Sequence record: PQ850631.1
From: Escherichia phage VerenaGrendelmeier_Bas101
DNA length: 64,000 nt
Reading direction: 5' to 3' (one strand)
Each line of letters opens with the position of its first letter. The stretch's first letter is position 1. Positions 2,247-10,153 of the stretch are shown here, in pieces. The translations under genes were made by a program, and so were the position numbers. The notes under the pieces are model-generated. The model was not told the DNA's origin. It did not search any database and was given only the letters and a program-made list of their open reading frames with translations.

Positions 2247-4622
2247 ATGAAAATTCTTGGCATAAAACTCTGGGAGAAGACGCAACCAGAAGCCGAACCA
2301 GCGGAGATGCCGCCAGGCGACCCATTGGCACCGTTTGAACGCCTGGAAAGGCGCGGCAGCGGCCAACGCTGGGATAAGACCGAAAGCAACCGCCCGACCT
2401 TTAAAACCGTTGATGACTTTCCTTTATATGAGCCTGATATCAACGGGGACGGTGTTGCAATCATTAAAGGTCGCTCAGTAGATTCAGCAACCGTATCCAA
2501 AAAAGTTATGGATAATGCCTTAAAGAACATAAGTTCAGAAGGGCAGGTGAATCCATACACAGTCCCTATTCAGTTGCAAAACTGGTACTTATCGCAATCA
2601 TTTATCGGATATCAAGCTTGCGCCATCATCGCGCAGCACTGGCTAGTGAACAAGGCTTGTTCCATGGTAGGCCGCGATGCGGTCCGTAAAGGCTGGGAAG
2701 TCAAATCCAGCTCTGAGTCGGAATTGTCAGTACAGGCAAGCGAACGCCTAAAGCAAATTGATAAAGAATTTAATATCAAAGAGCACTTAGTTGAAGCCGA
2801 ACGATTCAAGAATATTTTTGGCATCCGCGTCATCATATTTGATGTGCGCAGTGATGACCCAGAATATTATAGCAAACCTTTTAACATCGATGGCGTGACA
2901 AAGGGGTCTTATAAGGGAATCATTCAGGTTGACCCTTATTGGATGATGCCATTCTTGACATCTGAAAACACTGCAGACCCTGCATCACAGCATTTTTATG
3001 ATCCAGAATATTGGGTGATCAGCGGACAACGTTATCACCGCAGCCACCTCATAATCTTGCGCAACGATGAGCCAGCTGATATTCTCAAGCCGACTTATAT
3101 CTATGGCGGCATTCCTTTGACTCAGCAGATTTATGAACGTATCTATGCCGCTGAACGTACCGCTAACGAAGCTCCATTGCTGGCGATGTCTAAGCGTACA
3201 ACCACGCTGCGGACCGACGTTGACAAGGCGATTGCCAATGAGCGGTCGTTTGCCGAACGTTTGATGATGTGGATTAAGTACCGCGACAACTATGCGGTAA
3301 AAGTACTTGGTCAGAAAGAAGAGATGGACCAGTTTGACATCAACTTGTCAGACTTCGACAGCATCATCATGAACCAGTACCAGCTGGTGGCCGCAATCGC
3401 AAAAGTTCCGTCGACAAAACTGTTAGGGACGTCACCTAAAGGCTTTAACGCCACTGGTGAGTTCGAAATGGTCAGCTATCACGAAGAATTGGAGACTTGT
3501 CAGCAGCACGATTTGACGAAGATTCTTGACCGTCACTACAAAATCCTTTTGAAATCTGAAGGTGTTGAAGTCGACGTTAAAGTGGCATGGGAGCCAGTTG
3601 GTTCACTTACTGCTACTCAACTTGCAGAGATTAACGACAAACGAGCGAATACTGGTAAGACTCTCATTGATGCTGGCGTCATCTCCCCTGATGAAGAGCG
3701 CGACCGCATCAAAGACGACAAAAACAGCGGCTACAACCGTTTGCCAGAAGATACAGCAGAAGAAACCCCAGGGATGTCTCCAGAGAATATGGCATTGCTT
3801 GGCAAGTCCGCTGGTGAAGTTCTGCAAGGTAAGGCCGATATTGAACAGGCTAAGGCTGATGTTGTCAAGATGGGCGGCCAGTTCTATAGCGAGACTGGTA
3901 TCATGCCGGAAGGTGCCGCGCGCGGTGAGTTGGCAGAAAACCCTGACAGGGCACCAGTTGAGATTAACATGGATGATACCGATGACGAATCAAGCCATCA
4001 CGTTGATGTTCTAACGCAACTTAAAGAGGGTCTGGAGGGTATTGCTGACTATTACCTTAAAGAAGGTCAGGACGTGGATTTTGACCCTCAAAAAGATGCA
4101 AGGTCGGTGCAACCGTCTACGCTTCCAAGCGTAAAAGGAAATGTCGTAAACTTGCGACACAATGTAGGGAAGATGGATGCCGCATCGCTGCCTAAGATGA
4201 AGTTGCACGGGATGATTCTTGGTATTGAGAATCCTCGCAACAGCATTCGCAGGGGTAACAGTCTTGATGGTGAATGGGCAGTTAAGATGCCGCACCATTA
4301 CGGATTCATCAAAGGAACCAAGGGTGCTGATGGTGATGAAGTCGACTGCTTTGTTGGACCAAATATGAAGTCGCCTAAAGTATTCATCATTAACCAAAAT
4401 GATAATTATTCTGGCGAATTTGATGAACACAAGTGTATGCTTGGATTCGATTCAGCAGAAGAAGCGAAAGAAGCTTATCAGGCATCATTTGGTAACGGTT
4501 GGAATGGATTCGACTCAATCCACGAATTGGATGTAGACTCATTCAAGGAGTGGTTGAAGGGTGATTGCTCTCAAGCATATGGAGCACTCAATAATCCTAC
4601 TAATTCACCGAAGCAAGGTTGA
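2247..4622 (+). CDS. portal-like protein with C-terminal inorganic-pyrophosphatase-like domain
   Basis: large ORF after terminase; start moved to ATG 2247 behind AGGTGG RBS; C-terminal HHYGFIKGT..DGDEVDCFV and AEEAKEAYQASF resemble family I PPase. Confidence 0.55.
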   Translation: MKILGIKLWEKTQPEAEPAEMPPGDPLAPFERLERRGSGQRWDKTESNRPTFKTVDDFPLYEPDINGDGVAIIKGRSVDSATVSKKVMDNALKNISSEGQVNPYTVPIQLQNWYLSQSFIGYQACAIIAQHWLVNKACSMVGRDAVRKGWEVKSSSESELSVQASERLKQIDKEFNIKEHLVEAERFKNIFGIRVIIFDVRSDDPEYYSKPFNIDGVTKGSYKGIIQVDPYWMMPFLTSENTADPASQHFYDPEYWVISGQRYHRSHLIILRNDEPADILKPTYIYGGIPLTQQIYERIYAAERTANEAPLLAMSKRTTTLRTDVDKAIANERSFAERLMMWIKYRDNYAVKVLGQKEEMDQFDINLSDFDSIIMNQYQLVAAIAKVPSTKLLGTSPKGFNATGEFEMVSYHEELETCQQHDLTKILDRHYKILLKSEGVEVDVKVAWEPVGSLTATQLAEINDKRANTGKTLIDAGVISPDEERDRIKDDKNSGYNRLPEDTAEETPGMSPENMALLGKSAGEVLQGKADIEQAKADVVKMGGQFYSETGIMPEGAARGELAENPDRAPVEINMDDTDDESSHHVDVLTQLKEGLEGIADYYLKEGQDVDFDPQKDARSVQPSTLPSVKGNVVNLRHNVGKMDAASLPKMKLHGMILGIENPRNSIRRGNSLDGEWAVKMPHHYGFIKGTKGADGDEVDCFVGPNMKSPKVFIINQNDNYSGEFDEHKCMLGFDSAEEAKEAYQASFGNGWNGFDSIHELDVDSFKEWLKGDCSQAYGALNNPTNSPKQG

Positions 4623-4623
4623 T

Positions 4624-5475
4624 ATGGCTTTTAAAGCTTCGAAAAAACGTGAACGCCGCTCACCCGATAGAATCGGGCGCGGCAGTCCGATAATCCCATC
4701 CAACGCTATTGCGATGGCCTATCGTCGTGAGATGAAAGGTCTTTGCTATGCGATGATTGACGACTATCAAGCAGGAATTGCTGAGTGGCTTGAAAAGAAG
4801 CAGGTGAAAAAGTTCTTTGCGCAAGACTCTGCTGATTCAACTTTTCAGACCTTGATGAAGCGCCTTCAACTGAAATGGGCAAAAGCATTCGCCCGTGTTG
4901 GGTCAAAGATTGCTGCAGATTTCATCAAGTCAGTTGAAAAGGGTGCGACTTCTGCTACATTCGCAAGTCTTAAATCTGCAGGAATAGAAGCGCCAAAAGC
5001 CACATATAATAAATTCGTTGAGAACACTCTTAAAACAAGCGAGACGTTCAACACGACTCTAGTGACTAAGGTTGGCGAGGATATTCACAACAGGGTGTAC
5101 GAAGCGGTGATGCTTTCGCTGACTTCGCCAGACCCAGCGCAGCAAGGCACATCCGGCATTCAGGCGGCACTAAGGAATGTAAAACAATTCTCTGCAAAAC
5201 GCGTAGACCTTATCGCCAAAGACCAAACGAGCAAACTTTATTGCGTATTAAGTGATGAAAGGATGCGACAGAATGGCGTTGAGGAATTTGAGTGGGCGCA
5301 TTCAGGAGCAGGCAAAGAGCCGCGAATATCACATGAGCACGTCGACGGCATGAGATTCAAGCTTGATGACAAACGCTTATGGGAAGTAGGTGGAGAACTT
5401 AAGTTCAAAAAGGGTGACATCGGTCCTCCTGGATGGGCAATACACTGCAAGTGCAGAAAAATACCAATTATCTGA
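4624..5475 (+). CDS. head morphogenesis protein (MuF / SPP1 gp7-like)
   Basis: follows portal; start taken at ATG 4624 just after portal stop; family assignment from position and C-terminal region, not searched. Confidence 0.5.
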   Translation: MAFKASKKRERRSPDRIGRGSPIIPSNAIAMAYRREMKGLCYAMIDDYQAGIAEWLEKKQVKKFFAQDSADSTFQTLMKRLQLKWAKAFARVGSKIAADFIKSVEKGATSATFASLKSAGIEAPKATYNKFVENTLKTSETFNTTLVTKVGEDIHNRVYEAVMLSLTSPDPAQQGTSGIQAALRNVKQFSAKRVDLIAKDQTSKLYCVLSDERMRQNGVEEFEWAHSGAGKEPRISHEHVDGMRFKLDDKRLWEVGGELKFKKGDIGPPGWAIHCKCRKIPII

Positions 5476-5482
5476 GGTCATT

Positions 5483-6403
5483 ATGACGATACCAATCAAC
5501 ACATTCCCTCTATCTGGACAAACTCCAGTCTTGCCTGCGGTGTATGCTAATGGCTTGGCAATTGTCTCAGAATTCACTTCTGATAAAAACTTGATTGTTC
5601 CACTGAGCCCGCCGCTTGCATCAGGGTATAACTCAGTAGGTCAATTCTTTATGATTGGCAATGATGGCGATTCGACCAGCAAGCCTAACCTGACATTGTC
5701 TGTGCCTAAGATGAACATCACAGACGTTCAAACTGGCTTGACTGCATCAACAATCACCATTGCTTTTGGTGAAGCAGTGATCATAGGTATGGAGTCTGGA
5801 GGGTCGAAAAACGCTGTCGCAGTCAAAGTTGTGAAAACCAGCGGCAACCAATACACGTTACCAGCGGCAACAGCTTCCGTTCTTGGTGGCGTCAAAATAG
5901 GCACCGGAATAAGCGTAGCAGGTGATGGTACAATCAGCGTCACCCAATACTCATTGCCGATTGCCTCAGCATCTACTTTAGGCGGCGTAAAGGTCGGTAC
6001 AACTCTATCAATTGATGGGTCTGGTGTGCTTAATGCAGCAGCAAGTACCGTCCAGAATGCCACTAATAGCGTCAGCAATCCTCCAACAACTTTGGTCAAT
6101 CTGGCAACCTTAAACCTTCCTGCAGGGAAATGGCTTGTAACAGCAAGTCAGTTGACTGTCGCGACAGCAGGCGTTCAAGCGAATACCGGAATTACAGTCA
6201 AATTGTCAACAAGCAATTCAGATATTACGGATGATGCATTTGCCATGTCAGCTGGAATTCGGGCTGCAGGTCGCTTCGGCGGCAACATCCCAACAAAAGT
6301 AATTACTCTTGCCGCGCCTGGTAATGTGTATTTAAACTATCAGTGCACCGACGCGTTGACATCTACCGTTTACGGACAGATCACCGCAATTAAGCTGAAC
6401 TAA
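5483..6403 (+). CDS. structural protein with internal tandem repeats
   Basis: start moved to ATG 5483 behind GAGG; two about 30-aa repeats containing LGGVK(I/V)GT. Confidence 0.45.
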   Translation: MTIPINTFPLSGQTPVLPAVYANGLAIVSEFTSDKNLIVPLSPPLASGYNSVGQFFMIGNDGDSTSKPNLTLSVPKMNITDVQTGLTASTITIAFGEAVIIGMESGGSKNAVAVKVVKTSGNQYTLPAATASVLGGVKIGTGISVAGDGTISVTQYSLPIASASTLGGVKVGTTLSIDGSGVLNAAASTVQNATNSVSNPPTTLVNLATLNLPAGKWLVTASQLTVATAGVQANTGITVKLSTSNSDITDDAFAMSAGIRAAGRFGGNIPTKVITLAAPGNVYLNYQCTDALTSTVYGQITAIKLN

Positions 6404-6413
6404 AGAGGAAGTT

Positions 6414-6551
6414 ATGCAAAAGATTATTCAGTCACGTTATGTTAAAGTGCGAAATATTAATTGCAACTCTTTGCTTTCTTGGAAATGGGCTGTTTATGAC
6501 TCGATGTTGATTGGCGTTTTAGTGGCAGGAGTGCTATTTAATATTCACTGA
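6414..6551 (+). CDS. small putative membrane peptide (45 aa)
   Basis: AGAGGAAG RBS then ATG 6414; hydrophobic stretch MLIGVLVAGVLF; not in ORF track (under 60 aa). Confidence 0.3.
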   Translation: MQKIIQSRYVKVRNINCNSLLSWKWAVYDSMLIGVLVAGVLFNIH

Positions 6552-6584
6552 ATTCATCGGCAAAGGATTGCCGCGAGTTTTATA

Positions 6585-6850
6585 CGTATAATGACGTATC
6601 ATCCGTATCAAGTAAGTTGTTGTTTTCAAAAGAATCTTACGGATGATACGCGTTGCCGCCGTACCATATAGGAATTCAAATAAATTAATTTAAAATTATA
6701 TATCTAATTTAATTTTATTTTTTTATAAACTCTTATATATGAAAAGTATCCGTATCATCCGTATCATCCGTAGCACACCAGTGATAGCGCGACTTATACA
6801 CCGATACGGATAAAAATACGCCTCATTTTATCCGTATCATCCGTATCACA
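6585..6850. repeat. control region A: conserved 14-mer CGTATAATGACGTA, 9-bp ATCCGTATC iterons and AT-rich tract
   Basis: 14-mer at 6585-6598; iterons at 6597-6610, 6637-6666 (inverted), 6748-6773 (three tandem units), 6803-6812, 6828-6848; AT-rich 6670-6745. Confidence 0.6.
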
Positions 6851-6905
6851 CTAATAAAGGCGCGGCTATATCGGTTGTTATACATATTCAAACCATAATT
6901 ATTGT

Positions 6906-6934
6906 TTGCCTAAGTTTTTTTCATTAGATATAAT
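6906..6934 (+). promoter_or_regulatory. sigma70-like promoter (TTGCCT-17-TATAAT) for head/tail operon
   Basis: -35 TTGCCT 6906-6911, -10 TATAAT 6929-6934, 24 nt upstream of the start of 6958..8379. Confidence 0.5.
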
Positions 6935-6957
6935 ACACAATACTTATTTGAGGGTGG

Positions 6958-8379
6958 ATGCGAATGCAAACGGCACGCGAAATTGACAAAAATGGATTCT
7001 TGACGATTATGGGTTGTCCAATTTCGTCATTTGGCATTTTTGATTATTCTGCTGGTCAAGTTGGTCTTGATGGTGATCCGAATCGCATCGTAAAAGTCTA
7101 TCGCCCTGAGTCAGCGGTGAAAGACCCCGAAGCGATAGATTCATTCAAAAATATCCCTTTCATCGACAATCACGAAATGCTTTCTGGATTTGAAGGTGAT
7201 GAGGATAACACGGCACCCGAAGAGTATGGTGTCGATGGCGTTCTAACTGGCAATGTTTATTATGACAAGCCATGGATGCGCGGCGACCTTAAAGTGTTCA
7301 GCCGTCGTCTTAAGAAGGCCATTGATTCTGGAAAGGTTGACTTGTCTTTGGGCTATGACTGTGAATTCATCATACAGTCTGGAGAGTTTGACGGGCAGCC
7401 GTATGAAGTGGTGCAGACAACTCTTCGCGGCAACCACATTGCTCTCGTGGACGTTGGTCGAGTACCAGGTGCACGGGTGCTGGATGGTCGTTGCTTTGAC
7501 CATCTTTGTTTGACGACTGTAACACCATCCAACGAGGATTTAGACATGCCAAAACCGTTAAAAGGTAAAGCGCGTGATAATGCTGTTGAACAGCTGAAAT
7601 CACTGATCCCTGCGCTCGAACAATTTCTGAATGAAGAGAGTGCTGAAGCTGCTCATCAGGACGAAGTTGAAGTGAAAGCAGAAGAGAAGGACTCAACCGA
7701 AAATCGTGAAGAAGTAATGGTTGATCCAGAAGTCAAGGCAGAAGCAGAAGAAACCCCAGAAGGTGAAGAGAAGTTTGAAGTTGAAACTGAATCTCACGCT
7801 GACGGCGAACTTCCGCAATTGATCAGCCAAATCGAAGCACTTATTGCAAAACTGAAAGGTGGCGCGGTAGGTGATGAAGAAGAAGTTGAAGCCGAAGTCA
7901 AAGACGAAGAAGAAGTTGAAGTCAAGGCTGAAGATGTATCACCTTGCGACAAAGCTGAAGATGTGGTTAGCGGCCTGCAAAACAGCAACGTAAAGGGGGC
8001 TTCGGTCGAAAAAGATGACAAACCGACAAAAGCGGCGAAAGCGTCGCCAGGTCCAGCAAAAGGGGAACACTCAATGGCATCTGATTCAGCAGTTGCTGCT
8101 TTCTACGCTGATTCTGCTCGTAAGAATAGCCTCTACCAGCGCCTGTCTAAAGTTGTTGGTGCCTTTGATCATGCAACTATGGACTCCAAGTCCGTAGCGA
8201 AATATGGCGCTAAAAAGTTAGGCTTGAAGTGCGTTGATGGTGCTGAGTTTGACGTGGTGGATAATTATCTGCGCGGCGTTGAGCACGGTCAAAAACAGCG
8301 TGTAGTCGCAAAACAAAAGGCCGCTGCGGATTCTGCAGCAACTGACGAAGCATTTGAAGCTTGGTTGAAAGGGGAATAA
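6958..8379 (+). CDS. putative scaffolding / prohead core protein
   Basis: 473 aa; globular N-terminal half, then highly acidic E/V/K-rich repeats (EEVEAEVKDEEEVEVKAED); lies between head-morphogenesis and capsid genes. Confidence 0.45.
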   Translation: MRMQTAREIDKNGFLTIMGCPISSFGIFDYSAGQVGLDGDPNRIVKVYRPESAVKDPEAIDSFKNIPFIDNHEMLSGFEGDEDNTAPEEYGVDGVLTGNVYYDKPWMRGDLKVFSRRLKKAIDSGKVDLSLGYDCEFIIQSGEFDGQPYEVVQTTLRGNHIALVDVGRVPGARVLDGRCFDHLCLTTVTPSNEDLDMPKPLKGKARDNAVEQLKSLIPALEQFLNEESAEAAHQDEVEVKAEEKDSTENREEVMVDPEVKAEAEETPEGEEKFEVETESHADGELPQLISQIEALIAKLKGGAVGDEEEVEAEVKDEEEVEVKAEDVSPCDKAEDVVSGLQNSNVKGASVEKDDKPTKAAKASPGPAKGEHSMASDSAVAAFYADSARKNSLYQRLSKVVGAFDHATMDSKSVAKYGAKKLGLKCVDGAEFDVVDNYLRGVEHGQKQRVVAKQKAAADSAATDEAFEAWLKGE

Positions 8380-8381
8380 AC

Positions 8382-8999
8382 ATGATTTTCCAAACTAGTG
8401 TAGGCCGTCAATATACAACTGGCTTTCCTGGCGACATCGTTCGCGACGGCCCACAGCGTGGGAAGCCAGGCCGAATCGTTAGCGCCAACGACGGTGCAAA
8501 CGTAAACGCCATCAGCCGTGTGTTTGGTTTTAAGGCTGACGTGTCATTAATGGGTACTGGCCAAACCAAAACCTTGGGCGCGCAGGACTTTGAAGTTGAA
8601 CTGGGCGGCACCAATTACTATGGCATCCTTGGCAACAGCAAGCGTTACGCTCTGTATGGCAACTCTACTGGTCCTTTGGGTGCCAGCATGGTTCTGCCTC
8701 AATATAGCGAAGGCGAGTTCTATGATATGTGCACGGGCCTCGTAGTTGAAGTATTCAACCCAAGCACCAGTCCGCAGACGCTGAACTACGGCGACCTGCT
8801 CGCTTATGTACCTAAAGGCATTTCCAGCGGTAACAACCCGAACAACTTGCCTATCGGTGCAATTATCGCCTATACTGGCTCACTGCCAACTGGCATGGTT
8901 GCCATTCCAGGCGGTATCGTGATTGACCCGACTGCTATTGCCCTTTCCGGCCCAAGCGTCCAGTCTTCCACTTATACCATTGTACAATTGACTCGTTAA
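8382..8999 (+). CDS. hypothetical head-associated protein
   Basis: start moved to ATG 8382 behind AAAGGGGA; Gly/Ser/Thr-rich; between scaffold-like and capsid-like genes. Confidence 0.45.
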   Translation: MIFQTSVGRQYTTGFPGDIVRDGPQRGKPGRIVSANDGANVNAISRVFGFKADVSLMGTGQTKTLGAQDFEVELGGTNYYGILGNSKRYALYGNSTGPLGASMVLPQYSEGEFYDMCTGLVVEVFNPSTSPQTLNYGDLLAYVPKGISSGNNPNNLPIGAIIAYTGSLPTGMVAIPGGIVIDPTAIALSGPSVQSSTYTIVQLTR

Positions 9000-9013: not shown

Positions 9014-10153
9014 ATGACTCGCATTAGCCAAACACACTCTCGCCTCCCAGCGAGCAAGGTGCGCCCTTTTGATATGCAATCCGTTACTGACGCGGCTGTT
9101 TCCCAGCTTGCTCGTATCGGTATTGTGTTTGATTCCGCGATTGTGCGTGATCAGATTGAGCACTTAAACCGTGCAGGCGCTTTCCGCGTAGGTGACGCCG
9201 CGTTTACTGCGCCGCAGACTACTCCGTCAATCCCGACCCCGTTGCAATTCCTGCAGCAGTGGCTGCCTGGCTTCGTCAAAATCATGACCGCTGCTCGTAA
9301 AATCGACGAGCTGGTTGGTATTGATACCGTTGGTCAGTGGGAAGATGCAGAAATCGTTCAGGGCATCGTTGAACCAGCTGGCACCGCAGTTGAATATGGT
9401 GATTTCACATCTATTCCTCTGGCAAGCTGGAACGTAAACTTTGAACGTCGTTCTATCGTTCGTGGCGAAATGGGCATGGCAGTTGGTATGCTGGAAGAAG
9501 GCCGCGCATCCGCTATGCGTCTGAACTCCGCAGAAACCAAGCGCCAGCAGGCTGCTGTATCTCTGGAAATCATGCGTAACGCAATCGGCTTCTATGGTTG
9601 GTACAACGGGAACAACCGCACATTCGGCTTCCTGAATGATCCAAACCTGCCAGCAGCGATGACTTCCAACACCACTTCCGGCTGGGCTACTGCGACTTTC
9701 CAACAGGTAACTGCAGACATCCGTTTGATGGTTCGTCAAATTCGTGTGAACTCTCAGGACCAGATTGATCCAGAGAAAGTTGACATGACTCTGGCGCTGC
9801 CGACTAACTCTATCGATTGGCTGTCCAACACCACTGACTTCGGTATTTCTGTACGTGACTGGATCACCCAGACTTATCCGAAGATGAAGATCAAATCTGC
9901 ACCGGAACTCAACGGCGCACTTGGCAGTGACCCGACTTTCTTGAACGTGGCATACCTGTACGCCGATCACATCGATTCCTCAATCGATGGTTCAAGCGAT
10001 GATGGTTCCGTATTCAGTCAGCTGGTTCAAACCAAGTTCATGACTCTGGGCGTTGAAAAGCGTGCTAAGAGCTACGTTGAAGACTACGCAAACGCAACAG
10101 CAGGCGTTCTGCTCAAGCGTCCGTTCGCAGTCGTCCGTATGACTGGTATTTAA
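9014..10153 (+). CDS. putative major capsid protein
   Basis: 379-aa ORF after scaffold-like gene, AGGTG RBS, followed by a strong hairpin; assignment by position and size. Confidence 0.5.

Follow-up and report, generated by a model that had tools for sequence, protein, structure and literature searches.

The closest described systems to the protein analysed here are two solved head fibres, gp8.5 of Bacillus phage phi29 and gp21 of crAss001. The gene for gp8.5 also lies within a head gene block, adjoining the scaffold and capsid genes; the protein itself is dispensable and is thought to aid attachment to the host wall (PMC7602432). For the crAss001 protein, whose trimeric fibre sits on a capsid with T=9 geometry, binding to surface molecules of the host or the gut has been proposed, and the two fibres have already been linked by Bayfield 2023 (PMC10172136). 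T4 Hoc, T5 pb10 and SPP1 gp12 are dispensable proteins of the capsid surface, thought to bind surface carbohydrates and to raise the local phage concentration (PMC7602432). In E217, a relative of the phage considered here, the capsid has T=9 geometry and bears protruding trimers of cement protein (PMC10329688).

The DNA analysed here (hereafter, the window) comprises 64,000 nucleotides of Escherichia phage VerenaGrendelmeier_Bas101 (PQ850631.1), a Wifcevirus and thus a PB1-like E. coli myovirus. The gene under study encodes a protein of 306 amino acids and lies within the portal/Mu-F/scaffold/capsid block, apart from the baseplate and fibre genes. It is preceded by a Mu-F-like head-morphogenesis gene that ends at 5475 (PF04233, phrog_324) and followed by a DUF2213/Pa193_gp24 protease-scaffold gene at 6958..8379, in agreement with the first-pass annotation, which had placed it between head-morphogenesis and scaffold genes. 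The tail module begins some 6 kb 3' of the gene, which is outside the tail/baseplate module, and the window also encodes a cement-protein homologue at 8379..8996 and the capsid protein at 9014..10150. The start at ATG 5483 is shared with the GenBank records of Bas99 and vB_Eco4M-7, and the protein is 95.8–100% identical across 28 Wifcevirus records. The features of the locus, in window coordinates, are as follows.

5474..5477, + strand: Shine-Dalgarno-like GAGG, 5 nt upstream of the ATG at 5483 and overlapping the stop codon of the Mu-F-like gene, as read from the sequence
5483..6403, + strand: coding sequence of the fibre protein, 306 aa, ATG start at 5483, stop codon included
5483..5836, + strand: N-terminal beta-sandwich domain, aa 1–118, putative virion anchor (pLDDT about 93; profile and synteny)
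5849..5944, + strand: repeat unit 1, aa 123–154, QYTLPAATASVLGGVKIGTGISVAGDGTISVT (independent profile and self-alignment)
5945..6043, + strand: repeat unit 2, aa 155–187, QYSLPIASASTLGGVKVGTTLSIDGSGVLNAAA (independent profile)
6047..6400, + strand: C-terminal beta-sandwich domain, aa 189–306, putative TNF/C1q-like distal knob (nine strands in the AlphaFold model; fold matches)
6414..6551, + strand: small hydrophobic ORF, 45 aa, directly after the fibre gene, as in relatives
6558..6573, + strand: terminator-like hairpin and T-run, from a consensus scan only

The counterpart of the 45 amino acid ORF, vB_Eco4M-7_39, is annotated with a transmembrane domain, and small ORFs occupy the equivalent position in PB1 and in the contigs L002, L014 and L015. 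The hairpin that follows would be a candidate for the end of a transcription unit comprising the portal, Mu-F, fibre and small-ORF genes.

The protein contains a genuine internal tandem repeat. Its top self-alignment pairs aa 120–149 with aa 152–181 at a BLOSUM62 score of 93, versus 42.5 ± 6.3 (maximum 63) for 100 shuffles of the same protein, i.e. z = 8, so that the self-alignment check proposed with the first-pass annotation came out significant. A profile of 322 distinct units from 116 other proteins, from which the window protein and its orthologues were excluded, finds exactly two matches in it, at aa 123–154 (57.7 bits, i-E 1.1e-16) and aa 155–187 (53.1 bits, i-E 2.9e-15), and none in any other window ORF of at least 40 aa. 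The Pfam family PF11133 matches aa 108–147, overlapping the first unit. Two consecutive units of about 30 residues had been proposed at 5850–6010, and the strings quoted for them are present in the translation of 5483..6403 (aa 129–159, nt 5867–5959, and aa 160–188, nt 5960–6046). The repeat is real and rightly placed, but its exact period is 32 residues, its register begins six residues earlier (at Q-Y-T/S-L-P) and its true extent, nt 5849–6043, runs about 30 nt beyond 6010.

The two units share 18 of 32 residues. At the DNA level they are 55% identical (53/96) and use the same codon at 5 of the 18 conserved residues, which points to an old duplication kept at the protein level and not to recent slippage. 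Among orthologues the N- and C-terminal domains are retained and the repeat units number 2, 2, 3 or 4; units across orthologues are positional orthologues, not recent copies.

The repeats are of a fibre type, as had been surmised from their appearance. The unit, YxLPxAT..LGGVKxG...DGTISV, is present once in each of the two solved head fibres, gp8.5 of phi29 and gp21 of crAss001, and hundreds of phage fibre proteins have it two to seven times in tandem. At least 867 of 8,000 candidates scored contain the LGGVK unit; the 120 best matches carry two to seven copies each, with a modal spacing of 33 aa, and the two adjacent units of the window protein, with their period of 32, fall within this 32–33-residue tandem family. 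The repeat is found at least as commonly in proteins with tail-fibre domains, where it co-occurs with the T4 gp9/10 N-terminal domain, the tail-collar fibre N-terminus, the Peptidase_S74 chaperone and a phage tail tip domain, and two sampled proteins consisting of repeats only are encoded at tail-fibre-like gene positions. Since many carriers have tail-fibre domains, the repeat is a mark of a fibre and not of a head, and it does not by itself place a protein on the head. A text search of the literature for the motif (LGGVK etc.) turned up no relevant paper.

The N-terminal domain belongs to a family that was defined in this analysis and is not curated. It spans about 120 residues with the pattern LPxxYxN...GF...N.GD...KP.LT...GE, to which the window protein conforms. 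Searched against 1.84 billion representatives, its profile returned 29 matches at E<=1e-3 (35–197 bits), and about a dozen remote homologues have it as their N-terminal domain, with distal parts that are unrelated. There is one copy per genome, with no further match of the profile in the rest of the window, tail-fibre genes included. Among the distinct PB1-like contigs or phage groups, eight have readable context, and in seven of these the gene directly follows Mu-F (the Wifcevirus records, L002/L003, L004, L011/L012, L014/L015, L021 and L022); the exception is L006, in which the homologue P0103 lies upstream of terL. Four remote homologues (P0122, P0124, P0127 and P0130), two of them in the post-Mu-F slot, start with signal-peptide-like or lipoprotein-like leaders, which is odd for a virion anchor and was unexpected.

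Outside this family the slot is filled differently. In PB1, Serratia WR01 and Xanthomonas XcP1, which have the same head module, it holds tiny ORFs or nothing, with no fibre gene, and in one metagenomic relative a YadA-head adhesin-like gene has been added. A tblastn search of 50,697 phage records with the remote homologues P0135 and P0103 gave no match, so that isolated phages other than Wifcevirus seem to be without the N-domain family.

Searches of aa 1–107 against Pfam, PHROGs and NCBIfam returned no match (matches begin at aa 107–112), and no known tail, baseplate, neck or collar attachment domain was found in the N-domain with these libraries; NCBIfam holds no model for the fibre protein or its relatives. 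Sequence searches of the PDB with the N-domain and C-domain profiles returned only chance-level matches (UvrB, SUMO E1, PrgB), and neither these nor an hhalign comparison with the gp8.5 base revealed a known capsid-binding domain resembling the N-domain in sequence. An internal duplication relating the N-domain to the C-domain was considered and rejected (hhalign probability 0.5%).

The final AlphaFold2 model was calculated from an alignment of 18 sequences enriched in N-domain homologues; it replaced a first run with five orthologues alone, which was unusable (mean pLDDT 53.7). The mean pLDDT is 78.9, with values of about 93 for the N-domain and ten-residue block means of about 61–93 in the C-domain. 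The predicted fold is all-beta, save for short helical turns at the N-terminus and a single turn seen in the first model. In the monomer model the repeats are weakly predicted (pLDDT 54–66), with both units showing the same set of five short beta strands at an exact 32-residue period, and the structure-prediction check thus upholds the earlier suggestion of beta-type repeats with strictly periodic strands at low pLDDT.

Fold searches with the model match TNF/C1q-like knobs, and a jelly-roll similarity to solved ten-stranded TNF/C1q domains was found, although the output does not assign the match to one or other of the two beta-sandwich domains. The matches in BFVD are to C1q-domain and collagen-like fibre proteins, in colinear alignment, and tail fibres of cyanophages and of a Klebsiella phage rank among the top fold matches. 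By sequence the C-domain was found only in four orthologue clusters (local BLAST of 120 retrieved proteins); broader searches, with the single sequence or a four-sequence alignment, missed even an orthologue of 97% identity, which reflects a word-index limit and not absence.

The first-pass description of the product as a structural protein is corroborated by published mass spectrometry of its orthologue. The protein vB_Eco4M-7_38 (30.9 kDa) was found in CsCl-purified phage, where 8 peptides covered 72.9% of its sequence and its score ranked third among 33 proteins (PMC7048862). It is 95.8% identical to the window protein, and ECML-117 gp36 was likewise detected. The vB_Eco4M-7 sample also held a non-structural helicase (5.5% coverage) and a glyoxalase (PMC7048862), so that presence in it is strong, not absolute, evidence of incorporation. 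The scores were not accepted as a guide to copy number, since they do not track stoichiometry: the portal, with 12 copies, outscores the major capsid protein, with 535 in E217.

Taken with the three-part architecture of N-domain, repeats and C-terminal sandwich, these data make it very probable that the gene product is a virion fibre with an anchor, a repeat shaft and a knob. The N-terminal sandwich of about 120 residues would attach the fibre to the particle, the two 32-residue beta repeats would form a short shaft, the fold of which we infer, and the TNF/C1q-like jelly roll of about 120 residues at the C-terminus would be a putative knob, with a surface glycan as its most likely ligand. Analogy with all solved relatives of its parts suggests that the fibre would assemble as a homotrimer. 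Its most likely site would be the capsid surface, as for phi29 gp8.5 and crAss001 gp21, where the cement-protein trimers of the T=9 capsid could act as threefold docking sites. Such a head fibre might provide weak multivalent adhesion and so gather phage on cells prior to engagement of the tail fibres. A seat on the head is an evenly balanced call in its own right, and as a whole we lean slightly towards a modular, non-essential accessory fibre, probably capsid-borne, with a glycan-binding knob.

The strongest alternative is that the fibre is associated with the tail, as a third baseplate set or as a neck or collar whisker, with its position in the head block being a historical accident of accessory-gene insertion. 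Several observations point this way: in other proteins the LGGVK repeat is joined to true tail-fibre anchors and tips; the two sampled repeat-only proteins are encoded at tail-fibre-like positions; the PHROG matches include tail and tail-fibre families; the Pharokka-style annotation in Bas98–100 reads 'tail fiber protein'; the cyanophage and Klebsiella tail fibres are among the best fold matches; and the L006 homologue lies outside the Mu-F slot. However, searches of Pfam, PHROGs and NCBIfam show no match of the N-domain to a known domain for baseplate or neck attachment; the N-domain is missing from the window's own tail-fibre genes, and its family sits between the Mu-F and scaffold genes in 7/8 of the PB1-like contigs or groups with readable context. 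PB1-like phages without the fibre gene have complete, solved tails, and the BASEL authors, who explain host recognition in Wifcevirus by two other fibres, count only those two proteins as tail fibres (PMC11990801). We regard a tail location as possible but doubtful.

It is improbable that the product is instead an exported or cell-associated accessory protein (a moron, e.g. adhesin-like or an exclusion factor) that co-purifies with the phage. The Sec- or lipoprotein-type leaders on four remote homologues, two in the same slot, the small membrane ORF 3' of the gene, the YadA-like gene in the slot of one relative and the clearly non-structural proteins in the mass spectrometry sample would all fit such a protein, but the window protein and its orthologues lack a hydrophobic leader, the signal of vB_Eco4M-7_38 is among the strongest in the sample as against the sparse coverage of the contaminating helicase, and an anchor, repeat shaft and knob are the architecture of virion fibres. 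That the likeness of the two units arose by chance in a compositionally biased, Gly/Ser/Thr/Val-rich protein, for which BLAST without composition correction yields many spurious extensions, is refuted by the 8 SD excess over composition-preserving shuffles, by the independent profile (E about 1e-16 and 1e-15, with nothing else in the window) and by the gain or loss of whole units among orthologues.

An N-domain that is conserved, distal parts that vary and a slot that stays fixed within the PB1-like head module make this a case of modular exchange outside the tail. We tentatively suggest, with rather less than even confidence, that the head module of PB1-like myoviruses includes, between the Mu-F and scaffold genes, a swappable 'head-fibre cassette', in which the N-domain would dock on the T=9 capsid (e.g. 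at cement trimers or threefold hexons) and shafts and knobs would be exchangeable, the leader-bearing relatives being exported derivatives. The N-domain would then be a new capsid-docking module, and phages of the type used in therapy (Wifcevirus, not Pbunavirus) would possess a second, capsid-borne adhesion system. A fibre on the capsid would also offer an easy site for the display of foreign binding domains.

The annotations across the 28 near-identical Wifcevirus genomes disagree, calling the protein tail fiber, head fiber, tail connector, tail protein or hypothetical. The "head fiber" label gives no location, because its source is a motif of 25–40 residues that is a general fibre-shaft unit. 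For the engineering of host range in Wifcevirus and PB1-like phages, the protein adds a third, highly conserved fibre-like virion protein to the two tail fibres already recognised. As a phage adhesion or decoration fibre it is of an ordinary kind, and it leaves the general understanding of phage fibres unchanged.

In comparison to the known systems, T4 Hoc, T5 pb10 and SPP1 gp12 have unrelated folds (Ig-like, collagen-like) and capsid sites, and the analogy with the window protein is in putative function only. The knob was compared with PRD1 P5, BclA/ExsFA, C1q, the BC2L-C lectin and the cyanophage A-1(L) and A4 tail-fibre tips, all TNF/C1q-like; at sequence identities of 5–17% common descent is not established. 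In crAss001 gp21 (PDB code: 7QOF) the LGGVK motif is located in the distal C-terminal domain (E 0.042). This protein of 97 aa has one motif copy and no jelly-roll knob, and its N-terminal 38 residues, which plug a hexon pocket, are unrelated to the window N-domain.

The likeness to phi29 gp8.5 (PF11133; PDB codes: 3QC7, 6QVK/6QYD) is limited to about 25–40 residues. It consists of the shared motif YSLPAATxxTLGGVKxG, situated in the distal part of the phi29 fibre (residues 230–256) and present in two copies in the window protein; the second unit aligns with gp8.5 residues 230–252 by hhalign (E 1.5e-5) and 230–256 by hmmsearch against the PDB. The whole protein scores 28.2 bits against PF11133 (Phage_head_fibr; gathering cut-off 24.6), covering profile positions 213–252 of 277 only. 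The capsid-binding base of gp8.5 (residues 1–110; two small beta-barrels or beta-tulip) has no similarity to the N-domain (hhalign probability 0.09), and its helix-turn-helix supercoil stem has no counterpart by sequence in the window protein, as the latter is predicted to be all-beta. Whereas gp8.5 has one motif copy and no TNF-like knob, the window protein has two copies and a putative knob. Its repeats have the same period and tandem arrangement as an unnamed 32–33 aa LGGVK tandem fibre repeat (consensus PYTLPTATASTLGGVKIGSGLTIDGDGTISVAA), which phrog_9625/10588 and the C-terminal end of PF11133 capture in part. Compared to this family, the window protein has two units versus three to seven in most carriers, and where many other carriers join the repeat to tail-fibre anchors or tips, here it is joined to an N-domain specific to the PB1 lineage.

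The 306-aa protein encoded at 5483..6403 contains two tandem units of 32 residues, which together make up a repeat region at nt 5849–6043. The first-pass annotation had described two units of about 30 aa; both of its quoted strings are present in the translation (aa 129–159 and 160–188), although their register and end were slightly off. The best internal alignment scores 93, versus 42.5 ± 6.3 (maximum 63; z = 8) for 100 shuffles. A repeat profile built from 322 distinct 33-residue units of 116 other proteins, with the window protein and its orthologues excluded, matches the protein exactly twice, at aa 123–154 (57.7 bits, E 1.1e-16) and aa 155–187 (53.1 bits, E 2.9e-15), and no other ORF of the 64-kb window. 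The units have 18 of 32 residues in common, but their nucleotides are only 55% identical, and of the 18 conserved residues just 5 are encoded by the same codon in both units; the duplication is an old one, preserved at the protein level. A 123-aa antisense open frame (5728–6099, minus strand) crosses the repeat region; it has annotation support in none of the related records and most likely arises from the codon composition of the repeats.

Four orthologue clusters (P0001 at 97% identity, P0004 at 57%, P0002 and P0003 at about 50%) align over their full length apart from the repeat region, where orthologues of 306, 311, 340 and 367 aa carry 2, 2, 3 and 4 units, respectively. The repeat profile confirms three units in contig L004 and four in contig L002. 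The units are positional orthologues: unit 1 of the window protein shares 72–78% identity with the second unit of the longer proteins, and its unit 2 is nearest to their last unit. The conserved flanks, comprising the N-terminal and C-terminal 118 residues, have no match in Pfam, PHROG or NCBIfam and show no similarity to each other. Searching the protein collection with the C-domain, alone or as an alignment, returned no match and missed even the 97%-identical protein found with the full-length query; negatives of this search for short, compositionally biased queries do not signify absence.

AlphaFold2 modelling gave a pLDDT of 53.7 with five sequences and a mean of 78.9 with an alignment of 18 sequences in which N-domain homologues were enriched (N-domain about 93; C-domain about 61–93 as means of ten-residue blocks; repeats 54–66). 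Low confidence is expected for repeats when an oligomeric fibre is modelled as one chain. Both flanks are modelled as nine-strand beta sandwiches, and each repeat with the same five short strands at an exact 32-residue offset. Among predicted viral structures the top non-self matches, aligned over the whole length, come from C1q-domain and collagen-like fibre proteins; two tail-fibre domains also match by fold (20–22% identity, 2.2–2.8 Å rmsd), the search output being silent on which domain matched. From the colinear fold matches we infer that the C-terminal domain is a TNF/C1q-like knob.

The Pfam family PF11133 (Phage_head_fibr) scores the protein at 28.2 bits, just over its cut-off of 24.6, and the match is limited to profile positions 213–252 of 277. 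An orthologue profile run over all PDB sequences picked up three entries, for residues 230–256 of the phi29 head fibre gp8.5 (6QVK, 3QC7) and for the trimeric crAss001 head fibre gp21 (7QOF), each via the motif [P/Q]Y[ST]LPxAT..[ST][LI]GGVKxG, present once in either protein. The authors of the crAss001 structure describe the gp21 distal domain as resembling gp8.5 residues 226–280 (PMC10172136). At least 867 members of the large protein collection match (8,000 candidates scored), and outside the four orthologue clusters the common part is the repeat region only. The best 120 of these have 2–7 GG[VI][KR] motifs per protein, spaced most commonly by 33 residues (132 cases), then 32 (39) and 34 (34). 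Partner domains include the T4 gp9/10 N-terminal domain, the tail-collar fibre N-terminus, the phage tail tip, the Peptidase_S74 chaperone, a ConA-like lectin domain and a glycine-rich domain; two repeat proteins that were looked up both lie in tail-fibre-like gene positions. The earlier description of the repeats as fibre-type is thus borne out, the unit being found in phage fibre proteins that include carriers of tail-fibre domains. Joined to so many of these, the repeat is a general fibre-shaft module, marking a fibre and not a head. PF11133 captures it only through the single copy at the end of gp8.5. Since the repeat denotes a fibre without indicating its location, annotations of identical genes differ, with the names tail fiber, head fiber, tail connector, tail protein and hypothetical all in use.

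A translated region of Escherichia virus TH32 matches the window protein at 100% identity, and its counterparts are 95.8–98.7% identical in 27 other E. coli/Shigella Wifcevirus records (WFC, WFH, ECML-117, FEC19, vB_Eco4M-7, Bas98-100 and others). Wifcevirus phages are myoviruses of about 68 kb and remote relatives of the PB1-like Pbunavirus group of Pseudomonas phages (PMC11990801). From the terminase gene onward Bas99 is colinear with the window, where the terminase gene is followed by:

2247..4622, plus strand: portal with C-terminal InPase domain (PF06381; PF18823, E 3e-46)
ends at 5475: Mu-F-like head-morphogenesis protein, upstream of the fibre gene
5483..6403, plus strand: fibre gene (306 aa)
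6414..6551, plus strand: 45-aa hydrophobic ORF, directly 3' of the fibre gene
6552–6957 (400 nt): non-coding stretch between the 45-aa ORF and the protease-scaffold gene
6958..8379: DUF2213/Pa193_gp24 protease-scaffold
after the protease-scaffold gene: cement protein (PF22758)
after the cement protein gene: major capsid protein

The InPase domain of the portal (PF18823), which also appears among the polyvalent, DarB-like and virion protein families of PHROG, is kept in every PB1-like contig seen. The counterpart of the 45-aa ORF, vB_Eco4M-7_39, has an annotated transmembrane domain, and small ORFs of 45–81 aa are present at the corresponding position in relatives, PB1 included (PB1 gp21, 46 aa). 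The non-coding stretch holds a terminator-like hairpin (6558–6573), a 13-nt motif CGTATCATCCGTA (core ATCCGTATC) iterated at 6595, 6638 (reverse), 6751, 6760, 6803 (reverse), 6824 and 6833, AT-rich palindromes (6666–6726) and a promoter-like TTGCCT-17-TATAAT (6906–6934). These features suggest a regulatory region carrying several copies of a putative protein-binding site, and a gap of comparable size is present in PB1, Serratia phage WR01 and contigs L004 and L014.

A profile of the N-domain returned 29 matches at E<=1e-3 from 1.84 billion representative proteins, about a dozen with the domain at the N-terminus (alignment A3). The remainders of these homologues, from 143 to 746 aa, are very unlike each other: a variant GGV repeat is present in some and repeats characteristic of other fibre proteins in others, and the distal part has no Pfam match in any. 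On contigs of sufficient length, the gene lies directly after Mu-F and before the scaffold in a PB1-like head module (orthologues on L002/L003 and L004, P0132 on L011/L012, P0135 on L014/L015, P0130 on L021 and P0122 on L022). The one exception, P0103 (L006 8285–8833; 182 aa), comprises the N-domain and two repeats without the C-terminal knob and is encoded immediately before the terminase gene on a different PB1-like contig. Each genome has a single copy of the domain, which was not found in the tail-fibre genes of the window or in PB1. Elsewhere this slot contains two tiny ORFs (PB1), one (WR01) or none (Xanthomonas phage XcP1), and in one metagenomic PB1-like relative three large genes. Among the latter, a YadA-head-repeat protein (L011 3716–6937, 1073 aa; L012 28–1950, 640 aa; PF05658 E 2e-15) adjoins P0132 and another protein of 402 aa without matches. 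This variation, together with the differing remainders of the homologues, identifies the slot as a variable accessory locus, whose hallmark protein pairs a conserved N-terminus with distal parts that can be exchanged, the pattern expected for a virion-attached binding protein.

Virion proteomics, suggested as a check in the first-pass annotation, is already published and detected the orthologue (PMC7048862). In the LC-MS/MS data of Necel et al. for vB_Eco4M-7 and ECML-117, both purified on CsCl, vB_Eco4M-7_38 ("unknown protein", 30.9 kDa) gave 8 peptides, 72.88% coverage and a score of 3353.7, the third-highest of 33 proteins, and ECML-117 PI34_gp36 (30.8 kDa) was likewise detected (PMC7048862). 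Position and identity (95.8%) make vB_Eco4M-7_38 the orthologue of the fibre gene. A few non-structural proteins were present in the sample as well, with scores far lower (PMC7048862), so incorporation into the virion is very likely, short of formal proof. The portal outscores the capsid protein in these data (PMC7048862), so scores are not convertible to copy numbers.

The protein most probably forms an accessory fibre, presumably a homotrimer, in which the N-domain would serve as anchor on the particle and the two beta repeats as a short shaft, whose length is tuned in relatives by unit number; the TNF/C1q-like knob would bind a surface ligand, probably a carbohydrate. Many knobs of the TNF/C1q-like type act as lectins. 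Across Wifcevirus isolates the protein hardly varies, whereas the receptor-binding domains of their T-shaped tail fibre vary widely (PMC11990801), which would make a common surface feature more likely as ligand than a strain-specific O-antigen.

The capsid is the favoured location of the fibre, at about even odds. Arguments for it are the constant place of the gene within the head module, the lack of a tail-attachment signature in the protein, the completeness of solved PB1-like tails without it, the protruding cement trimers of the relatives' T=9 capsid, which offer threefold docking sites (PMC10329688), and the fact that both solved motif carriers of known position, gp8.5 and gp21, are head fibres. 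Against it stand tail-type fibre features: the repeat is common in tail fibres, and the best fold matches include tail-fibre tips. Comparison with gp8.5 and the PDB sequence search gave no link of the N-domain to a known capsid binder. Also counted against the capsid are signal-peptide-like or lipoprotein-like leaders in four remote N-domain homologues, Sec-type in P0122, P0124 and P0127 and lipoprotein-type in P0130 (MRKTILLLGLLALTGC). Exported proteins are not expected as virion parts, yet P0130 (L021 1142–1573) and P0122 (L022 7948–9840) still occupy the post-Mu-F slot of PB1-like contigs.

A head-fibre label in some GenBank records and the presence of an "unknown protein" in the virion were already known. 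New, at a descriptive level, are the three-part architecture with its variation in repeat number, the recognition of the Pfam label as motif-driven, and a PB1-lineage N-domain family with a conserved slot. The protein is a clear member of the unnamed group of fibres with LGGVK repeats, and its model points to a TNF/C1q-like fold. Membership of the gp8.5 family is narrow, with only the distal motif in common; the capsid-binding base and helical stem of gp8.5 were looked for and not found. In working mode the protein may be likened to phi29 gp8.5 and crAss001 gp21, and any resemblance to Hoc-type adhesive decorations would be in function only.
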